From contig WGOA01000052.1 of assembly GCA_016124275.1 (NCBI GenBank), positions 7,440 through 71,439 on the forward strand: 64,000 nucleotides of DNA, written 5' to 3'. Each line of letters opens with the position of its first letter. The first letter of the stretch is position 1. A program made the translations under genes and the position numbers. The notes below the pieces were generated by a model. The model did not search any database. It was not told where the DNA came from and saw nothing but the letters and a program-made list of their open reading frames with translations. Of the stretch, positions 53,261 through 63,527 are shown one piece after another. The DNA is from Bacteroidota bacterium (GTDB lineage: Bacteria; Bacteroidota; Bacteroidia; Chitinophagales; BACL12).

Positions 53261-53809
53261 GCAAGTTTTTTGGCAACTTTTTGGTGGAAAACGGGTGGGA
53301 AAATTTTTACTAAATTTTATTTTTCTACTATCAAAACAGCGCGGATTCCTCCAGCACTGCCATTTTGGTGCATTAATTGTTGAAAGCCATTTAGTAATGC
53401 ACACCAGCAATCCACGCACCAGAAACATCTGTTCAACTTCGTCCATTTTTCTCCACGTTCTGCCCCGCGCAATGTGGAATTTCTTCCTAGTTTAGTCCAC
53501 CGTTTGGCGTTGCCGCGGGCGTTCGGTTAACAAGTTGGCTTTTAGAGAAGTGATGGACCGTATCTTATCCACATCCCGCTCCTTTCGCTGCCAACACGTT
53601 GATCACTTTCTTAGTTTTTAAGCAGCAGACCCTCTCTCACAGGATGGTCTGGTTGTCAGTAGAAAGCTTCCTTTTTCACGGTTAGCTTCCGCTTGCGACC
53701 AGGTCGTTCAGGGTTTCGCATGCCGTACATGGAGGAAAGCGCGCTCGATACAAGGCCAAATGGCATGTTCTATTGCTATTGGATCACCTGATTAACCTGA
53801 ACGAGCCGG
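53261..53809. promoter_or_regulatory. dnaA upstream region / oriC candidate with DnaA box
   Basis: 549-bp AT-richer spacer; perfect TTATCCACA at 53565-53573; several degenerate TCCAC/GTGGA cores. Confidence 0.6.
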
Positions 53810-55243
53810 ATGAGTAAATCACATGACAACGTATGGACCAATTGCCTCAAAATCATCAAGGACAATGTCAGCCAACAAAGCTTTCGCACCTGGTTTGAGC
53901 CGATCAAGCCGGTTGCCCTCCACGAAAACATCCTGACTATCCAGGTTCCCAGCCAATTCTTCTACGAATGGTTAGAAGAGCACTATGTCAGTTTGCTGCG
54001 CAAGACCATCAAGCGGGAAATGGGCAAAGAAGCTAAATTGGAGTACCAGATTATTGTTGAAGGAGGCTCAGCCACTGGCCGGCCTTACACGGTTAACTAC
54101 CCCAACTACAATTCAGGCGACTCTCAGAACCTTGAGCTGGACCCGCCCATGGTTGTGGGCAATTCCATCAAGAATCCCTTTGTTATTCCGGGGCTCAAGA
54201 AAATCAACATTGATTCTCAGCTCAACCCCAATGCAAACTTTGAGTCGTTTGTTGAAGGAGATTGCAACCGCCTCGCCCGCTCAGCCGGATATGCTGTAGC
54301 GGACAAGCCGGGAACTACTGCGTTCAACCCACTGGTCATTTACGGCGGTGTAGGCTTGGGCAAGACTCACCTGGCGCAGGCCATCGGCAACATGGTCAAG
54401 CAGAAGTACAAGAACAAAACGGTTCTGTACGTCAGCAGCGAGAAATTCACCAACCAGTTCATTGATTCGCTCAAGAACAACTCGGTTAACGACTTTATCC
54501 ACTTCTACCAACTTATTGATGTCCTGATCATTGACGACATTCAGTTCTTTGCCAACAAGCAAAAGACGCAGGACATGTTCTTTCACATTTTCAACCACCT
54601 GCACCAAGAGAAGAAACAATTGATCCTGACGTCTGACCGCGCACCGCGCGATCTGGAAGGTGTCGAAGAGCGTTTGCTTTCCCGCTTCAAGTGGGGCCTG
54701 GCTGCTGACCTGACGGTCCCCGACTTTGAGACCCGACTGGCCATTCTGGAAAAGAAGATGTACGCCGATGGCATTGAGCTTCCCCGCGAAGTGGTGGAAT
54801 TTGTGGCCTACAACATTAACTCCAATGTTCGCGAGTTAGAAGGTGCGCTGATTTCTCTGTTGGCCCAGGCTTCGTTGAACAAAAAGGAAATAGACCTGGA
54901 TCTGGCCAAAAAGATCATCAAGAACTTTGTCAAGAGCATCAGCCGTGAAGTCTCAATTGACTTTATCCAGAAAACGGTTTGCGAATACTTTGATGTTCCG
55001 GTCGAAAAGCTTCGTGAGAAAACGCGAAAGCGTCAGGTCGTCCAGGCCCGTCAGCTTTCCATGTTTTTGGCCAAGCACTTTACCAAGAACTCGCTCAAAG
55101 TCATTGGCAAACATTTTGGCGGTCGGGACCACAGCACGGTTATTCACTCCTGCCAGGCTGTTCAGAACCTGATGGACACCGATGGGAAGTTCAAAGACAG
55201 TGTATCTGACATTCAAAAGAAGATTCAGATGAGCATTAGCTGA
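53810..55243 (+). CDS. dnaA: Chromosomal replication initiator DnaA
   Basis: FNPLVIYGGVGLGKTHL, LIIDDIQF, RLLSRFKWGL, NVRELEG, ARQLSM, IGKHFGGRDHSTVIH. Confidence 0.98.
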   Translation: MSKSHDNVWTNCLKIIKDNVSQQSFRTWFEPIKPVALHENILTIQVPSQFFYEWLEEHYVSLLRKTIKREMGKEAKLEYQIIVEGGSATGRPYTVNYPNYNSGDSQNLELDPPMVVGNSIKNPFVIPGLKKINIDSQLNPNANFESFVEGDCNRLARSAGYAVADKPGTTAFNPLVIYGGVGLGKTHLAQAIGNMVKQKYKNKTVLYVSSEKFTNQFIDSLKNNSVNDFIHFYQLIDVLIIDDIQFFANKQKTQDMFFHIFNHLHQEKKQLILTSDRAPRDLEGVEERLLSRFKWGLAADLTVPDFETRLAILEKKMYADGIELPREVVEFVAYNINSNVRELEGALISLLAQASLNKKEIDLDLAKKIIKNFVKSISREVSIDFIQKTVCEYFDVPVEKLREKTRKRQVVQARQLSMFLAKHFTKNSLKVIGKHFGGRDHSTVIHSCQAVQNLMDTDGKFKDSVSDIQKKIQMSIS

Positions 55244-55309
55244 AGGCAGTAAGGCCATGCTGGCTTTTCGCCTGGTCAATCCAAGGCTTGGTCTGTTAAG
55301 GACAGGCAG

Positions 55310-55343
55310 AAACCACTCCGTTTAGGGGTGGTTTTTGTTTTTT
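55310..55343 (+). terminator. Intrinsic terminator of dnaA
   Basis: AAACCACTC...GGGGTGGTTT hairpin followed by a T-run. Confidence 0.75.
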
Positions 55344-55344
55344 T

Positions 55345-55692
55345 AAAAAGGAAGTCGATGTTGTGCTTGTTTTTCATCGCTAAGCGATCCAATTCGTTCA
55401 GCATCATTTTTCCATAGCCTTTCTTTTGTTCTTTGGGAAGAACCGAAAAGTCAATGACGCCCAATACGCGGATAAGTTCTCCGTTGAGATTCATGCCCCG
55501 GTAATCCAGACCAAGTTGTCCAATGACCATTTCATTTTTACACATGACCAGACGGTAGTGGCAGCATTGTTTATAGAACAACCGGCCTTGGTGGTCATAA
55601 TCAGGAAAACAAACCCTGAGCAGTGCATTAATTTATGGCCGAAACTTTTCCGGTAAAGCGTATTCAGGATACAAGTTAATTTGCAACGACAT
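55345..55692 (-). pseudogene. GNAT acetyltransferase pseudogene (internal stop, 3' truncation)
   Basis: ATG 55692 reads MSLQINLYPEYALPEKFRP*(TAA 55635-55633)INALLRVCFP...VLGVIDFSVLPKEQKKGYGKMML...NIDFLF, then runs into the dnaA terminator. Confidence 0.75.
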
Positions 55693-55794
55693 TTTACCGT
55701 ATGTTTTTATATTGTTATAATATTTAATAGTTACGGAAAGTAAATTTAATCAAAGTTTGGTGTTTTTTTTGTAGTTTAGCCCTATCCCTATTTT

Positions 55795-55894
55795 TTCAGA
55801 TGCAAGGCCTATCTCTAAGTCACTCGGCTTTGAGGTAAACTTTTCTATTTTTTAAAGGTTCCCGACTTCGCCGAAGGAGTGCTGTGCATCTGAG
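55795..55894 (+). ncRNA. Structured 5' leader, riboswitch/cis-regulatory RNA candidate
   Basis: TCAGATGCA(55796)/TGCATCTGA(55893) closing stem with nested CACTC/GAGTG, CGGC/GCCG, GAGGT/ACTTC, AACTTTT/AAAGGTT pairings; ends 15 nt before the TTG start. Confidence 0.55.
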
Positions 55895-55908
55895 TCAAAA
55901 CTATTTTT

Positions 55909-57354
55909 TTGGTTAGCATACTTGACATAACTATTTTTATAGCATATATTTTATTAATGCTAAGTGTTGGGTATCATTTTTACCGACGCAATGAATCTGA
56001 AGAAGATTATTTCATTGGCGGGCGGAGCATGGGACCATGGCACATAGGGCTTTCAGTGGTAGCAACCGATGTTGGGGGTGGCTTCTCCATAGGCCTTGGA
56101 GGCTTGGGTTTCACCATGGGCATTGCAGGTTCCTGGATGTTGTTTACCGGATTATTGGGTGCGTGGCTAGCGGCATGTTTGCTCATTCCAAGGGTTTACC
56201 GGCTTCCAGAGTTTTCCAAACTCAGCACATTCCCCCAAATTTTTCACAACCTGTTTGGCAAATGGCCTGCATTTATGGCGGCGGTAATTTCGCTTATTGG
56301 CTATTTGGGCTTTACCAGTTCTCAGCTTTTGGCTGGGGCTAAACTGGCATCCGGTACTTTTCCAGGCTTTAGCCTGATGCAGGCCTTGCTTTTAATGGGT
56401 GTCATCGCTGTGGTCTATACCGTGATGGGTGGAATCAAGGCGGTTATTTATACCGATACCATACAATGGATAATCCTCCTGGCGGGGCTCATTTTTATAG
56501 GATTGCCCATGGGTTTTTTAGCGGTAGGCGGGAGCGAAGGGATACGTCAGGCACTTCCACCGGATATGCTTAGTCTGGGCAATATTGGTGCAGTTCAGGT
56601 AATCAATTGGGCTATTACCATCATTCCTATTTGGTTCATTGGCATGACGCTTTATCAGCGCATCTTCGCAAGCCGCGACGAAAAGTCTGCAAAAAAGGCC
56701 TGGTACATCGCCGGTCTTTTTGAATGGCCAGCGATGGCCTTTCTCGGAGTCAGCTTAGGCCTTTTAGCGCGCGTAGCCGCTGAGCAGGGCATGTTTGCGC
56801 CATTGGGCTATGGGGCGGGTGCCCTGCCTGATCCTGAGATTGGTTTGCCCATGTTATTGAGCACCATCCTACCAAGTGGTCTGCTTGGCTTGATGATGGC
56901 CGCTTACTTTTCAGCCATTCTCTCCACCGCCGACAGTTGTTTGATGGCCGCATCGGGCAATCTGACCACTGACCTTATGCCCTTTCTCCGCAAAGGAAAA
57001 GCAGGAAACACCCTGGCTTACTCCCAATGGGCAACGCTGATTTTAGGGGTCCTTGCACTGGGCATCGCCCTGTATCTGGAGAGTGTATTGGAACTCATGC
57101 TGCTCTCGTATGCGTTTATGGTATCTGGGTTGTTTGTTCCCCTCGTAGCCGGACTTTTCTTTAGAAAGACCAATGCAGCTGCATCCATTGGGGCTATGGC
57201 AGCAGGAGGAACCACGACCATCGCGCTGACACTCGCCAAGGTGGCCCTGCCGTATAGCTTTGATCCCATTCTGTTTGGCCTGGCAGCATCGGTTAGTGTT
57301 TACATTGTCCTTTACACCATCAATCAGCAAAATATCAACCATGCAAATTCATAG
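55909..57354 (+). CDS. Sodium:solute symporter family protein (PutP-like)
   Basis: DYFIGGRSM, YTVMGGIKAVIYTDTIQW, YQRIFA, SAILSTADS; ~13 TM segments; TTG start. Confidence 0.92.
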   Translation: MVSILDITIFIAYILLMLSVGYHFYRRNESEEDYFIGGRSMGPWHIGLSVVATDVGGGFSIGLGGLGFTMGIAGSWMLFTGLLGAWLAACLLIPRVYRLPEFSKLSTFPQIFHNLFGKWPAFMAAVISLIGYLGFTSSQLLAGAKLASGTFPGFSLMQALLLMGVIAVVYTVMGGIKAVIYTDTIQWIILLAGLIFIGLPMGFLAVGGSEGIRQALPPDMLSLGNIGAVQVINWAITIIPIWFIGMTLYQRIFASRDEKSAKKAWYIAGLFEWPAMAFLGVSLGLLARVAAEQGMFAPLGYGAGALPDPEIGLPMLLSTILPSGLLGLMMAAYFSAILSTADSCLMAASGNLTTDLMPFLRKGKAGNTLAYSQWATLILGVLALGIALYLESVLELMLLSYAFMVSGLFVPLVAGLFFRKTNAAASIGAMAAGGTTTIALTLAKVALPYSFDPILFGLAASVSVYIVLYTINQQNINHANS

Positions 57355-57766
57355 ATACACCGCATTGGCGCAGCTCGATGATTCGCTTGAGGACATTGTC
57401 GATTTCCTGTTCAGCAGACTGGAGCATTATGGCGATTCCAAGCCAGACATCCGTAAATGCCTGGAGTATGCCTTCAACAAAGGTGGATCCCTTACAATTG
57501 GACGCTTGAACAGTCAAATGGCTGGAATTGTCGTGGTCAATGAAACGGGGATGAGCGGCTTTATCCCGGAGAACATTCTCGTTTACATCGCCGTGGAACA
57601 ATCCTTGCGGGGCATGGGCATAGGAAGACAGTTGATGCAACACGTTATTGACCACACCAAGGGCAACATTGCGCTGCATGTTGAGCCTGACAATCCAGCG
57701 CGAAGGCTTTACGAAAAGTTGGGATTTACCAACAAGTACCTTGAAATGCGATTGCTCAAGCCATGA
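57341..57766 (+). CDS. GNAT N-acetyltransferase
   Basis: ILVYIAV...RGMGIGRQLM, LHVEPDNPA..LYEKLGF. Confidence 0.9.
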   Translation: MQIHRYTALAQLDDSLEDIVDFLFSRLEHYGDSKPDIRKCLEYAFNKGGSLTIGRLNSQMAGIVVVNETGMSGFIPENILVYIAVEQSLRGMGIGRQLMQHVIDHTKGNIALHVEPDNPARRLYEKLGFTNKYLEMRLLKP

Positions 57767-58995
57767 TCAACCCAGCAACGGTCCGTCTTTTAACAGCATT
57801 GCGGCATAAGCTGCATCAACAGGCAGAATTGTCCGGTGCTGAGATTCAGACGCAGAAACTTATCCGCAAGTTTCTGGAACAACACTGTCCTTCGGCTTCC
57901 ATCACCCCAATAGCGGAAACAGGATTGCTGGTTGCGTTTCCGAACCTGAACGAATCGTCTATCCAGCATCCAGCCCCGCACAAGAACCCTGTACAAGCCC
58001 TGGACGCAGCGCCTCATGGCAGTGCCAAATCTGGTCCAGCACTTTTGTTCCGGGCCGATATTGATGCGCTGCCCATTCAGGATCGCATCGCTTCCGCCTA
58101 CCAATCCCTCAACAACGGGGTAGGGCACAAGTGCGGGCATGATGGGCACACGGTCATTCTATGTGGCCTGGCCATGCATCTGCAAGCACATCCGCCTGAA
58201 GCGGCGCGGGTGTTTCTCTTGTTTCAACCCGCAGAAGAAACGGGCGAAGGGGCAAAGCGGGTTTGGGCAACGTTGTCCCAAGACCAACAGCACTTCGACT
58301 ATGTTTTTGCCTTGCACAATATACCTGGGGTGGCATTGGGCCATATTCTTTGCAAAGCCGGTCCCATCACCTCTGCCGTGATTTCGATGATCGTTAAATT
58401 GGAAGGTCGGCGTGCCCACGCTGCGGAGCCCTGGCATGCCATCAATCCATCCTCTGCCATCGGCCCGATGCTGGCGGCCGCGCGTTCCTTAGAGGAGCAC
58501 AACGGCAAGCGAGATGATTTTGCAGTCATAACTCCCATCCACCTTTGGGTGGGAAGTCCGGATTACGGCATATCACCGGCGGACGCTGAACTGCATTTTA
58601 CCCTTCGCTGCAGAACCAGTCAGGTCTTAGCGCAAAAGGTTCAAGCCTTCTGTTCTCAGATTGATCAGATTGCCAACCAAGAAAAACTGCGGGTACACTA
58701 CCACCAATTGCAAGCTTTTGAATCGTGTGTTAACGAGGAGTCGGCCGTAGCGTTGGTGTGCGAAGCGGCACGTTCCCTTGCGCTGCCCTATACGGAAATG
58801 GAGCATTCGTTTAGTTGGGGCGAAGATTTTGGCTTGTATACACAGCATTATAAAGCAGCATTGTTCGGTATTGGTGCCGGTGAATCGCTGCCACAACTCC
58901 ATGAGGATACGTATGATTTCCCCGACGCGTTGATCGCTCCTGCAGTTGAAATGTTCCAAGCACTCCTGAAACACACCGCTGCAAGCCATGTTTGA
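57763..58995 (+). CDS. M20D amidohydrolase
   Basis: LH..AELSG.E, FRADIDALPI, HKCGHDGH, FQPAEETGEGA, ALHN, GEDF, LH...YDF. Confidence 0.9.
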   Translation: MINPATVRLLTALRHKLHQQAELSGAEIQTQKLIRKFLEQHCPSASITPIAETGLLVAFPNLNESSIQHPAPHKNPVQALDAAPHGSAKSGPALLFRADIDALPIQDRIASAYQSLNNGVGHKCGHDGHTVILCGLAMHLQAHPPEAARVFLLFQPAEETGEGAKRVWATLSQDQQHFDYVFALHNIPGVALGHILCKAGPITSAVISMIVKLEGRRAHAAEPWHAINPSSAIGPMLAAARSLEEHNGKRDDFAVITPIHLWVGSPDYGISPADAELHFTLRCRTSQVLAQKVQAFCSQIDQIANQEKLRVHYHQLQAFESCVNEESAVALVCEAARSLALPYTEMEHSFSWGEDFGLYTQHYKAALFGIGAGESLPQLHEDTYDFPDALIAPAVEMFQALLKHTAASHV

Positions 58996-60160
58996 TCCAT
59001 CTTATATCGAGCTTGATTTTGATCACCTGAAATCCAACAGGGAATTCCTGGCATCGCTCTGTAAAAAGCCATGTGAACTCAGCATGGTGGTGAAGGGCAA
59101 TGCCTATGGGCACGGTGTACGGGAGATGGTGGCCATGGCCGCTCAATGCGGGGTTCGTCATTTTTCGGTGTACAGCGCTGATGAAGCCGTAGAAGTTTTC
59201 GAGGCTGCGGATAGCCGGCCGGAAATCATGATCATGGGCAGCATTGACAACGACGCGATTGGCTGGGCAATTCACAATAATATAAGTATTTATATTTTTG
59301 ATCACGAACGATTGGAGCGTGCCATCAACATTGCCAAGGGACTCAAGACCAAAGTTCGCGTCCATCTGGAGTTAGAAACCGGAATGAACCGCACCGGAAT
59401 GGACCAAAAGGGCTTGAACAAGGCACTGGAAAGGGTCAAGGCCAATGCGGAGTATGTTCAACTTGTTGGCACATGCACCCATCTGGCGGGTGCAGAGAAT
59501 CGGCAAAATTTTGAGCGAATTCGCAACCAGATCAAGACGTTTAATGCATTGCGTCAACAATTTGTGCAGCATCAGGTTGACCCTGGAACTATCCACACCA
59601 GTTGCTCGGCTGGTTTGCTCAATTTTCCGGAGTACAACTTTGATCGGGTGCGCTCCGGTATTCTCCACTATGGCTTTTGGCCCAATGACCAAACCAGGGA
59701 GGCATTTCTTCAGCGAACAGGGCTGGAGCAGAGCCCACTGAAGCGAGTCATTTCCTGGAAAAGCCACATCATGGCTATCCAAGACGTGCAGCAGAATGAA
59801 TGGATCGGTTACGGGGAAACTTACCGGGCTCCCCGAAATCTTCGCATAGCCGTGGTGCCTGTCGGTTACTCACACGGATTTGATCGATCGCTGAGCAACA
59901 GAGGAAGTGTTTTGGTTCGCGGTCATTCCGCTCCGGTGGCCGGTATCGTCAACATGAATTGCATCTCCGTTGATGTGACGGATTGCCGCGGTGCTGCGCC
60001 TGGCGATGAAGTGGTGCTTATCGGCAAGCAAGGCGAATCAGAAATAACGGTGAGTTCTTTTAGCGAATCGCTCCATGTGCTCAACTACGAACTCTTGACC
60101 CGTTTGCCCCGCAGCATTCCCAGAAAAATTGTCAACAATGGCTTACCTCACTCTTCATAA
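58988..60160 (+). CDS. alr: Alanine racemase
   Basis: VVKGNAYGHG (PLP Lys), HLELETGMNRTG, VRSGI..YG, IGYG..Y, VPVGYSHG, NYELL. Confidence 0.88.
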   Translation: MFDPSYIELDFDHLKSNREFLASLCKKPCELSMVVKGNAYGHGVREMVAMAAQCGVRHFSVYSADEAVEVFEAADSRPEIMIMGSIDNDAIGWAIHNNISIYIFDHERLERAINIAKGLKTKVRVHLELETGMNRTGMDQKGLNKALERVKANAEYVQLVGTCTHLAGAENRQNFERIRNQIKTFNALRQQFVQHQVDPGTIHTSCSAGLLNFPEYNFDRVRSGILHYGFWPNDQTREAFLQRTGLEQSPLKRVISWKSHIMAIQDVQQNEWIGYGETYRAPRNLRIAVVPVGYSHGFDRSLSNRGSVLVRGHSAPVAGIVNMNCISVDVTDCRGAAPGDEVVLIGKQGESEITVSSFSESLHVLNYELLTRLPRSIPRKIVNNGLPHSS

Positions 60161-61208
60161 GGAGAACCTTGCCCGGAACTATGCTTTTTTGGAAGAGCAA
60201 TTCCAGCGCAGAGGCATTGCCTGGGCGGTGGTGACCAAACTGTTGTGTGGCAACAAGGAGTACTTGCGGCTGGTCTCCGAACTCGGTGCCACCGAAGTTT
60301 GCGATTCCCGTGTAAGCAACTTGCGCCTGATCAAGGAAATCAATCCGAAGATCCAAACGGTTTACATCAAACCCCCTGCCAAGCGAAGCATCGCCAGTGT
60401 TGTCCGCTATGCGGATGCCAGTTTCAATACGGAGATTCAAACCATAAAGTGGTTATCCAAAGAAGCCGTGCTGCAAAACAAATTGCACAAGGTGATCATC
60501 ATGATCGAGTTGGGCGATTTGCGCGAAGGCGTTATGGGCGAAGAACTGGTGGACTTTTATGAATCCGTTTTTCAACTGCCCAACATCCGGGTTACAGCCA
60601 TTGGATCCAACCTCAATTGCCTGCATGGGGTCATGCCATCCGAAGACAAACTGATTCAGCTCAGCCTCTACAAGCAACTCATCGAAGCCCGCTTTGATCG
60701 GGAGATTTCCTGGGTTACGGGCGGCACGTCCGTGGTATTGCCCATGATGCTGCGCGGTCAGTTGCCCAAAGGCATCAATCATTTTCGAATTGGCGAGTCG
60801 TTGTTTTTTGGCAAGAATATCGTTGACAATGATGTCTTGCCGGGTATGACCGATGATGTATTCAAACTGTACGCAGAGATCATTGAATTGCATGTCAAAC
60901 CAGTCATTCCCATTGGTGTGCTCGAAGCAAATCCAAGTGGCGTCGTCTACGAACTTAACGAGGAAAACTACGGAAAGACCGCAACGCGGGCCATCCTTGA
61001 CATTGGGCTGCTGGATGTATCGCCAGATTTTTTAATCCCCGACGATGTGCACATCACCGTGTTAGGAGCCAGTTCCGACATGCTGGTCATTGATTTGGGA
61101 GAACAAGAGCAAGACTACAAGGTCGGCGATTTAGTGGCCTTCAGCCTCCGTTACATGGGGGCATTGGGCGTCATGAATTCCAGGTACATCGAAAAGCGCA
61201 TCGTCTGA
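60138..61208 (+). CDS. Alanine/ornithine racemase-family PLP-dependent enzyme (fold III)
   Basis: VVTKLLCG (PLP Lys), DSRVSNL, MIELGDLREG, GSNLNC, GGTS, HFRIGE, GASSDML. Confidence 0.88.
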   Translation: MAYLTLHKENLARNYAFLEEQFQRRGIAWAVVTKLLCGNKEYLRLVSELGATEVCDSRVSNLRLIKEINPKIQTVYIKPPAKRSIASVVRYADASFNTEIQTIKWLSKEAVLQNKLHKVIIMIELGDLREGVMGEELVDFYESVFQLPNIRVTAIGSNLNCLHGVMPSEDKLIQLSLYKQLIEARFDREISWVTGGTSVVLPMMLRGQLPKGINHFRIGESLFFGKNIVDNDVLPGMTDDVFKLYAEIIELHVKPVIPIGVLEANPSGVVYELNEENYGKTATRAILDIGLLDVSPDFLIPDDVHITVLGASSDMLVIDLGEQEQDYKVGDLVAFSLRYMGALGVMNSRYIEKRIV

Positions 61209-61373: not shown

Positions 61374-63527
61374 TTAGTGCTGCACCACCACCATTTGTGG
61401 GGTTTCAAAGCTGCCACCGTGAAGCAAGTACATACCATTAGGAATGTTCTGTACATCAAAGGACATGGTGTTGGCACCTTCCACTACCTGTGTGTTCCAG
61501 GTAGCCAGGGTACGGCCACTCAGGTCGGTCAGTTGAATGGGCAGTTCGGCAGTTACCGTGCTGGTCCAGACCAGATTCAAGGTGTTGGAAATTGGGTTAA
61601 TGACCTGCATCGAAGCAGTACGCAGTGCGGGTACGCTGAAAAACGCAACCGAAGAGTAGGGCGTCAAGCCGGCAGGGGTCAGGTCGCAGCCACAAGCCAC
61701 GCGCCAGTTGTAGGTAGCGCCGGCCTCAAGTCGGGCCGCGGGGATAAGCAGCGAGCTCACGCCGGAACCGGCAACACGTAATTTAGAAGTTGGGGAGCCT
61801 ACTTTGCCACCTTGTACCAAACATCCAATGGATTGAGCAACAGGGCTCCAGCTCAGGGTAACCCCTGCGCCGCCAACACTGGAAGAAAGGCCGGTAGGGG
61901 CCGTAGCGTTGTCGCAACCTGCCGGGGGCAGACCGAAGTAGATGTCATCCCACAAGTAAATCTTCTCACCAGCGGTGGTGCCGTCAACTCCGAAGTTGAA
62001 GAACACAGAAGCTTTGGTGAAGTCGTAGGAGGGGTTCAACACAGCCGTTCCGGGCACTTCGTTGTTGAAGTCAAACACCAGGGTCTCCCAGCCATTCGCT
62101 ACCGTATTGATCACATCGGTCTCTACGCTGCGGGTTGGATCGGTGGCATCTTCAATTTTCAAGCGAACCACGATACCGGCATCGGGTGAATAAACCCGTA
62201 TGCTCATGGTGCTCTCGGTAAACGTAACCGGGATCGGGTTGGCGAAGCCAGCCGTGGTGGACATGGTGGTACCGGCAAAGAACTGGGCACCAGGGCCTTT
62301 GGTGGTGCGGGCAACGGTGTTGCCGGCATCTTGAGGATCTGCTGCGAGTACAGTGCTGTTTCCCTCGAAATCAGTCAGCGTATAATCTACGCCGGGTTCG
62401 TCAAACGTGATGGGCAGGTCAATCAGGACAATGCCTGTGCCGCCGCCGCCAATGAACTCAACATTGTCCCAGAGGTAGGTTTTTTCGCCAGCTGTAGCAC
62501 CATCGGTGCCAAAGTTGAAGAAAATGGAGGCCTTGTTGAACGTATAGCTGATGTTCAGGGCAGCTGTACCGGGGGCCTCGTTGGCAAAATCAAAAATCAA
62601 GATCTCCCAAGCATTGGCAACCGTGGTCACGGCTTCCGTTTCTACGCTGCGCGTCGGGTCAGCGGCATCTTCAATTTTCAGGCGAACCGGAATGCCGGCA
62701 TCGGGCGAAAGGACCCGTACGCTCATGCGGGTGTCGCTGTTGCTAATGGCGATAGGGCTTGCCAAACCGGCAGGCGTCGACATGGTGGTACCTGCCCAAA
62801 GAGGCGCGGAAAGAGGCTTCGTCGTGCTCATGACGTTGTTGCCAGCGTCGAAGGGGTCAGTGGTTAAGGCCGAGATGTTGTCGCCAAAGTCGGTTACCGT
62901 GTAATCCACGGCGGGGTTGTCCCAGGTAATCGGCAGGTTAATGGGTGCCAGGACCAACGCAAAGTCGGTAATAATGTCATCGTAGTAAGAGGTCACGTCA
63001 ACGCCGGTGCCCGGAGCGCCAAAGTCAAAAAACAGCACCACCTGGGCGTAGTTGAAGCCACTGGCAGGAGTGAAGGGGCCTTCAAATGAACCGATCGTCG
63101 TGTTGAAAGTTACCTCAACCCACTGGTTGATGGCCGTAACCGGTTGCGTTTGAATCCAGTTTGCGCCGCCGTTGGTGGAGTTCTCCAATTTCAGGGAGAC
63201 CGATCCAACGTGGTCCATCCAGACTTTCATCCGTACCAGGTTGTCGGTAGCCAGATTCACTGAAGTAGCCGGAGGGGGATTGCCAAAGCAACCGGCAAAC
63301 GTTGCTCCGCAGCCCGACTTGGTAAAGGAGCCTACATTGGCGCTTGTGTTCAAACCAGAAGCATCTGGATTAGCCAGCAAGCCTGTATTGGTCCCTTCCA
63401 GGGTACAGTTGCCGAAATAGGTGAACGGGTTGGTTGTTCCTGGGGTCTCGTGGTCAAGAATGACCGTTTGCCCCCATGTTGTCCAGGGTAGAAGCCCCAA
63501 AACAATCAGATAGCATAATTTTCTCAT
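61374..63527 (-). CDS. Secreted T9SS-cargo protein with three repeated beta-sandwich (carbohydrate-binding-like) domains, an FN3-like domain and CTD
   Basis: Signal peptide; repeats LPIT.D...VDYT.TDF...VRLKIEDA.DPTRSVET...WE.L.FDF...KAS.FFNFG.DG...YLWD; C-terminal INP...DLSGR...PNGMYLL. Confidence 0.82.
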   Translation of the reverse strand: MRKLCYLIVLGLLPWTTWGQTVILDHETPGTTNPFTYFGNCTLEGTNTGLLANPDASGLNTSANVGSFTKSGCGATFAGCFGNPPPATSVNLATDNLVRMKVWMDHVGSVSLKLENSTNGGANWIQTQPVTAINQWVEVTFNTTIGSFEGPFTPASGFNYAQVVLFFDFGAPGTGVDVTSYYDDIITDFALVLAPINLPITWDNPAVDYTVTDFGDNISALTTDPFDAGNNVMSTTKPLSAPLWAGTTMSTPAGLASPIAISNSDTRMSVRVLSPDAGIPVRLKIEDAADPTRSVETEAVTTVANAWEILIFDFANEAPGTAALNISYTFNKASIFFNFGTDGATAGEKTYLWDNVEFIGGGGTGIVLIDLPITFDEPGVDYTLTDFEGNSTVLAADPQDAGNTVARTTKGPGAQFFAGTTMSTTAGFANPIPVTFTESTMSIRVYSPDAGIVVRLKIEDATDPTRSVETDVINTVANGWETLVFDFNNEVPGTAVLNPSYDFTKASVFFNFGVDGTTAGEKIYLWDDIYFGLPPAGCDNATAPTGLSSSVGGAGVTLSWSPVAQSIGCLVQGGKVGSPTSKLRVAGSGVSSLLIPAARLEAGATYNWRVACGCDLTPAGLTPYSSVAFFSVPALRTASMQVINPISNTLNLVWTSTVTAELPIQLTDLSGRTLATWNTQVVEGANTMSFDVQNIPNGMYLLHGGSFETPQMVVVQH

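Follow-up and report, generated by a model that had tools for sequence, protein, structure and literature searches.

A genus-restricted structured 5' leader, and candidate regulatory element, upstream of a sodium:solute symporter operon in a Chitinophagales bacterium

What kind of element occupies the spacer ahead of an operon that starts with a sodium:solute symporter (SSS) gene and runs through acetyltransferase, amidohydrolase and racemase genes in a Chitinophagales bacterium (assembly GCA_016124275.1, contig WGOA01000052.1)? The window, by which we mean the whole 64,000-nucleotide stretch of that contig under analysis, holds at this place a 327-nt intergenic region between a minus-strand GNAT-like open reading frame (ORF; 55276-55581) and the symporter start at 55909. 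The region is AT-rich, with a GC content of 0.39-0.42 versus ~0.50-0.62 in most 2-kb windows. An earlier note made from the letters of this DNA had proposed a cis-regulatory RNA here, one that might respond to an amino-acid derivative, to Na+ or to the osmotic state. A stable, strand-specific leader does precede the operon, in keeping with the first part of that proposal, but sensing of any of these signals is unsupported. The element is a genuine, unclassified and genus-restricted structured 5' leader with secondary structure on the + strand, and we treat it as a candidate regulatory leader, not a demonstrated riboswitch.

Positions 55795-55894 of the + strand fold into a four-way junction that is closed by P1 and carries three local hairpins, P2, P3 and P4. 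The helices are as follows.

55795-55804 with 55885-55894, + strand: P1, 10 bp
55806-55808 with 55881-55883, + strand: P1b, 3 bp
55810-55837, + strand: P2 hairpin; outer stem 55810-55815/55832-55837, inner stem 55817-55821/55826-55830, loop ACUC, pair probabilities 0.65-0.98
55838-55860, + strand: P3 hairpin; 7 bp with a 9-nt U-rich loop, CUAUUUUUU
55865-55880, + strand: P4 hairpin; ACUUC/GGAGU with loop GCCGAA, pair probabilities 0.87-0.92

The minimum free energy (MFE) is -34.1 kcal/mol (55794-55895), the MFE structure is the same as the centroid, and pair probabilities are roughly 0.9 in every helix (0.88-1.0 in P1 and P1b, with 0.55 for the outermost U.G pair). No dinucleotide shuffle folded as well (0/200 and 0/300; z -3.4 to -3.6), and the - strand of the same DNA reaches -25.7 kcal/mol. 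The favoured fold contains two pairings that the earlier note had drawn, which were therefore correct: the outer stem TCAGATGCAAGGC (55796-55808) / GCTGTGCATCTGA (55881-55893), interrupted by a single A/G mismatch and including one G-U pair, and AACTTTT/AAAGGTT, which forms a hairpin. The ~100-nt extent of the fold within AT-rich DNA and its end 15 nt before the TTG at 55909 were also read correctly. The remaining inner pairings of that first model (CACTC/GAGTG, CGGC/GCCG and GAGGT/ACTTC) did not survive, as the resulting rod reaches only -25.4 kcal/mol and its pair probabilities are <=0.01; the segment CTATCTCTAAGT, taken to be unpaired, is instead the 5' strand of P2. The base of P1 lies at -15 to -24 from the UUG start, and the start region is unpaired in the window MFE. 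A scan of 55200-56100 found no terminator-like site; the U run begins 11 nt after P1. Among 122 unique symporter upstream regions, the last 120 nt of the one in the window have the fourth lowest z, and the three regions with lower z resemble terminator hairpins of the preceding gene.

The same layout is found in a sister species. The only independent close relative is G001, a member of the same genus whose symporter is 87% identical; loci L010, L029, L110 and L116 are all the same G001 DNA (the metagenome locus L116 is identical to L029). There, dnaA is followed directly by the leader and operon, without the GNAT fragment. The G001 leader (L010 1424-1498) has the P1/P2/P3 arrangement of the window without P4, with an MFE of -24.9 kcal/mol on the + strand versus -14.7 kcal/mol on the - strand; over L010 1422-1500, z is -3.3 and 1/300 shuffles folded as well. 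Much better folding of the + strand in both species fits an RNA made from the coding strand and speaks against a DNA palindrome. P1 of G001 has 9 bp, of which two differ from the window on both sides (C-G to U-A and A-U to C-G) and three more became G.U, a change that leaves C/A mismatches on the other strand. P2 is again in two parts: its inner stem is kept with one U.G replaced by G-C, and UCUAAG is conserved, but the outer stem is re-registered and is not strictly homologous. P3 has 5 bp of entirely different sequence with a 9-nt U-rich loop at the same place, and the P4 columns are gaps, so that P4 is present in the window genome only. The junctions (A..C and CCCG in the window versus UC, UU and U in G001) and the P2 loops (ACUC versus AAUACA) differ, and the P3 loops share U-richness only. 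The spacing from P1 to the start codon is equal in the two species. No alternative pairing with the start region that is conserved between them was seen in folds of the two leaders.

Shared pairing exceeds what the two genomes show elsewhere. The consensus fold of a sequence-only MAFFT alignment has an energy of -14.1 kcal/mol, compared with -3.4 +/- 2.1 for column shuffles (0/500 reach it; z -5.0), and 110 random syntenic 100-column tiles from the same two genomes have z values that average -0.44 and go no lower than -3.6, none reaching -5. In an alifold prediction for the two leaders, the start codon is touched only by a weak CAAAA/UUUUG hairpin that is invariant in both sequences. When the alignment is fitted to the structural model, 60/64 cells (93.8%) pair and 10/36 pairs are changed on both sides, including 4/7 pairs of P3. 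None of 500 shuffles reached the observed values, and a slid control in which the 3' partners were moved by 1-3 columns paired in 28-44% of cells with 0-2 double changes. Interior identity between the two leaders is 35/72 columns in the structure-guided alignment; for the symporter gene the values are 92/213 at four-fold degenerate sites and 263/482 at third codon positions. Measured against these sites, the leader interior has drifted to about the neutral level. The structure looks selected, and selection appears to act on pairing rather than on the interior sequence.

The sequences that border the fold behave differently, with conservation between the window and G001 well above the neutral level. 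They include a putative promoter and the segment before the start codon.

55756-55759, + strand: TTTG, possible -33 element read from the sequence; weak, 12 nt upstream of the -7 box
55772-55779, + strand: TAGTTTAG, -7 box; 7/8 positions of the Bacteroidota sigma-A consensus TAnnTTTG
55895-55908, + strand: A/U-rich tail UCAAAACUAUUUUU, unpaired in the MFE structure, directly before the start codon

Both promoter motifs named in the earlier note are present, but the TTTG lies closer to the -7 box than is typical, the usual -33 to -7 spacing being ~19 nt; its G001 counterpart is TTG, 13 nt upstream of the -7 box of that species. The -7 box region, GTAGTTTAGC, is identical in G001, and the upstream flank also retains UUCAGAUG, TATC.C.ATTTT and TTCAGATG. 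Downstream, CAAAAC.AUUUUUUUG is nearly identical, and the likeness continues through the start codon (CAAAAC.ATTTTTTTG). One conserved span thus starts at the -7 box and takes in the 5' strand of P1; the other covers the A/U-rich tail and the UUG start. The tail has adenines at -6 and at -9 to -12 relative to the start and is the presumed ribosome landing zone. In Flavobacterium psychrophilum, the TAnnTTTG box is located at -12 to -5 (PMC9723704), which predicts a transcription start site (TSS) near 55784 here, 11 nt before P1, and hence a 5' untranslated region (UTR) of ~125 nt, of which the fold would fill ~100 nt. The median 5' UTR reported in that source for F. psychrophilum is 24 nt (PMC9723704).

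The TTG start at 55909 is conserved in G001. We note that G001 has an in-frame ATG inside P3, 33 nt upstream of the conserved TTG (L010 1481-1516), that an ORF caller would pick; in the window, a TGA at 55891-55893 closes this frame upstream, so TTG is the shared start of both species. A leader-peptide attenuator was considered and rejected: the AUG at 55800 opens an ORF of 12 codons in the window and of 5 codons in G001, the peptides are unrelated, and the short ORF is thus not conserved.

Searches for known families and for further copies returned only these two leaders. Rfam 15 at gathering thresholds has no match anywhere in the window, in agreement with the earlier statement that no known riboswitch class fits. 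At E up to 10 on 55600-56000, four chance-level hits appear (13.8-16.3 bits versus gathering thresholds of 44-71), none of them to a riboswitch model and only one inside the fold (mir-423, 55837-55860); the likeness to a glycine aptamer that had been suggested was not borne out, as no glycine model is returned even at this setting. Among papers on riboswitch candidates with symporters in Bacteroidetes, none deals with this element, judging by titles and the openings of abstracts. The element is single-copy in the 3.42-Mb, 93% complete assembly (BLAST E below 0.06 and a single-sequence covariance model, R1) and is thus not a repeat family.

Symporter homologues number in the hundreds at ~60% identity across Bacteroidota, and 80 genome and 80 metagenome loci were kept, plus five family loci, not counting those of the window and G001 themselves. 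An nhmmer profile of the two leaders recovered the window and G001 copies only from all fetched loci, as did a two-sequence covariance model (R3) from 166 sources, apart from noise at E > 1. Across the genomes of the order, R3 matched 2/151 (the window genome and G001) and none of the 149 others. An end-anchored pattern, TTCAGATG N60-90 TCTGRKYCAAAAC, matched in 4/401 genomes including these two; the other two matches lie inside long ORFs, form no P1 and were set aside as chance. R1 found the window only among 86 sources and nothing further in 28 family genomes, and is too specific, scoring the true G001 leader at only 9.8 bits with filters off. The covariation in orthologous leaders that the earlier note had looked to is seen in one species: pairing is kept with compensatory changes in G001. 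Some 160 other SSS homologues showed no copy of the element in front of them. Regions upstream of the symporter group by lineage, and the window clusters with G001 alone. The largest cluster comprises 40 loci with an apparently short leader behind a promoter, many other Bacteroidota lineages have unrelated and often short regions before the same operon, and a GNAT gene lies directly upstream of the symporter in 22/157 loci. In L031 and L040 (Flavobacteriales/Cryomorphaceae-type), a common segment ~100 nt upstream of the symporter start carries a hairpin, GCUYGCC...AAGGGCA, just before the start codon; a similar hairpin was seen by eye in the corresponding segment of L054, for which the last 120 nt have a z of -2.9. 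These three may share a separate lineage-specific leader for the same operon.

We favour, with a probability of about 0.5, a leader that acts in cis as a constitutive fold and not as a ligand sensor. P1 would pack the ~100-nt leader into a compact domain with its base at about -15 from a weak UUG start, leaving the conserved A/U-rich tail downstream single-stranded. Such a P1-closed domain could set the mRNA stability, the rate of translation initiation or both, and as a stable domain near the 5' end it could also protect the mRNA. In Flavobacterium johnsoniae, the zone from -20 to +20 around start codons is kept unstructured and tunes initiation, and in Bacteroidota without Shine-Dalgarno pairing, structure in this zone and upstream adenines tune initiation (PMC6847099). 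Long structured 5' regions are common in a flavobacterial transcriptome, with 64 listed for F. psychrophilum (PMC9723704); these regions and Flavo-1 are likewise long folded leaders behind TAnnTTTG and mostly of unknown function, but the present leader belongs to an organism of a different order and matches no Flavo-1 sequence or model. The favoured arrangement also resembles known leaders of another kind. Stem-loops near the 5' end stabilize some bacterial mRNAs, the ompA leader being an example, and ompA-type leaders likewise combine a stable 5' structure with an unpaired ribosome landing zone downstream; unlike their simple hairpin, the leader here is a predicted junction of three or four helices.

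Several points weigh against this interpretation. There are only two independent sequences (n=2), so covariation counts are not statistics; the model-fitted alignment, having been built on the structure, is biased in its favour; dinucleotides are not preserved in the column shuffles; and the control tiles are more alike (73-85 identical columns of 100) than the leader sequences. The TSS for this leader is a prediction, the term constitutive is argued from the absence of switch features and not from a positive result, and the sequence retained in P2, UCUAAG...CUU, could mark a specific binding site.

That last point leads to a leader regulated in trans, bound at P2 or at the U-rich P3 loop by an RNA-binding protein or small RNA, which we consider unlikely but reasonable as a rival. 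P2 keeps UCUAAG and the inner stem AAG.C/G.CUU while neighbouring sequence has drifted, the 9-nt P3 loops are U-rich in both species and resemble the U-rich tail before the start codon, and bS1 has been proposed to contact upstream leader nucleotides in Bacteroidota (PMC6847099). The conservation of P2 rests on two sequences, however, and no candidate regulator gene is adjacent, the neighbours being dnaA and a GNAT fragment. The small number of sequences is also an argument for having no function at all, that is, for a chance fold of an AT-rich promoter-proximal spacer whose likeness in G001 reflects residual homology plus easy hairpins. A 64-kb window has many 100-nt segments, among which an isolated z near -3.5 is expected occasionally, 2/110 control tiles reach an alignment-test z of -3 or lower, and the outer stem of P2 is not strictly homologous in G001. 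Such an origin is nonetheless quite unlikely, because both leaders beat their shuffles (0/300 and 1/300 as good) despite an interior identity at the neutral level, none of the 110 control tiles is as extreme as the consensus fold with its z of -5.0, and the fold is strand-asymmetric. Strand asymmetry argues also against a feature of the DNA, whether a pair of operator half-sites in inverted orientation or what is left of a miniature transposable element bounded by terminal inverted repeats. TTCAGATGCA and TGCATCTGAG do make up a perfect 10-bp inverted repeat whose arms are 80 bp apart, and with ~100 bp between such arms in AT-rich intergenic DNA the element resembles miniature inverted-repeat transposable elements (MITEs) and REP-like palindromes. 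But the leader is single-copy in its own genome by BLAST and R1 and is positionally orthologous in G001, where the repeat is imperfect as DNA and pairs as RNA through three G.U pairs, with two further positions changed on both arms; a DNA-level explanation is accordingly very improbable.

A further alternative is a riboswitch or ion sensor of a new and narrowly distributed kind. Its aptamer would be the P1-closed junction, its ligand one of the operon's substrates or products (amino acid, N-acetyl amino acid or Na+), and ligand-dependent P1 stability would modulate translation from the UUG 15 nt downstream. The place and shape suit it: a P1-closed multi-helix junction lies in the 5' UTR of a transporter-led operon, as in riboswitch aptamers of the glycine (RF00504) type, where P1 likewise encloses several hairpins and stems tolerate compensatory change. 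The stems covary between the window and G001 with compensatory changes (n=2), no known Rfam family matches, P1 lies equally far from the start in both species and a P1 ending at -15 could still affect initiation. Unlike those aptamers, the leader has no conserved loops or junctions, these nucleotides differing even between two congeners; one helix, P4, is optional; the element is known so far in two species; and no expression platform was found, as the scan of 55200-56100 shows no terminator and the folds show no conserved alternative pairing with the start region. The same operon does without the element elsewhere, upstream of ~160 other SSS homologues, and it is missing from 149 other genomes of the order by R3 and from 399 others by the pattern once the two chance matches are set aside. 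We regard such a switch as improbable on balance. Slightly more improbable is the form of it in which a genus-restricted riboswitch or ion/osmolyte sensor would open or close P1 with ligand beside the weak UUG and so respond to the uptake and processing of an amino-acid derivative by the widely conserved SSS-GNAT-racemase cluster. If a sensor were nevertheless present, its pocket would lie in structure that does not show with only two sequences, which are not enough to define one; the points against a switch therefore leave some room for it.

Should the fold have a function, it would be a further unclassified structured leader among Bacteroidota 5' UTRs, which are poorly charted; these organisms lack Shine-Dalgarno sequences, and leader structure together with A/U-rich tails sets their translation. 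As the case rests on two sequences from one genus, its general importance is modest. The gene cluster downstream recurs across the phylum, and any regulator of it would be a handle on its function. In the window, dnaA and the operon are arranged as follows.

53810-55243: dnaA, upstream of the GNAT-like ORF (TIGR00362, 529 bits)
55909-57354, + strand: sodium:solute symporter (SSS), first gene of the operon, UUG start (Pfam SSF, E 1.3e-46)
57260-57766, + strand: GNAT acetyltransferase, downstream operon gene
57763-58995, + strand: M20 amidohydrolase, downstream operon gene
58988-60160, + strand: alanine racemase (Alr), downstream operon gene
60129-61208, + strand: ornithine-racemase-like (Orr-like) PLP enzyme, last listed gene of the operon

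Genes after the symporter overlap or abut each other. The SSS/GNAT/(M20, Alr)/Orr-like cluster recurs, in a few fixed orders, across many Bacteroidota lineages. A GNAT gene is adjacent in at least 131/167 symporter-bearing loci and an Orr-like gene is found in at least 103/167, lower bounds since contig ends cut many of these loci, four of which are copies of the window or of G001; genes for M20 and Alr are also frequent. With the search terms used, no paper was found on this symporter/acetyltransferase/racemase cluster in Bacteroidetes. Between the window and G001, nucleotide identity is 77-78% in the operon (55915-61208) and 83-85% in the flanks, so the operon is more diverged between congeners than the DNA on both sides, and the dnaA-symporter spacer is exactly where the BLAST alignment breaks off. 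The higher divergence could reflect faster evolution of the operon or its replacement by recombination.

Three further features of the surrounding DNA were noted. The GNAT-like ORF at 55276-55581 (- strand, 101 aa) matches its family only in part (Acetyltransf_9 profile positions 44-112 of 127) and has no counterpart at this place in G001, so that a truncated gene remnant or an insertion is probable. Upstream of dnaA, a 550-nt intergenic region (53261-53809) carries a perfect DnaA box, TTATCCACA, at 53565-53573, within a long BLAST block of ~85% identity common to G001, and could be the dnaA promoter and autoregulation region or part of oriC. The leader itself was considered as part of oriC and rejected: there is no cluster of DnaA boxes at the leader, the nearest boxes lying upstream of and inside dnaA, and lying near dnaA is not enough to place it in the origin. 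At the far end of the operon and convergent to it, a gene at 61374-63527 (- strand) encodes a protein of 717 aa that carries a T9SS sorting domain at its C terminus, and contains internal DNA repeats that cross-match also within G001.

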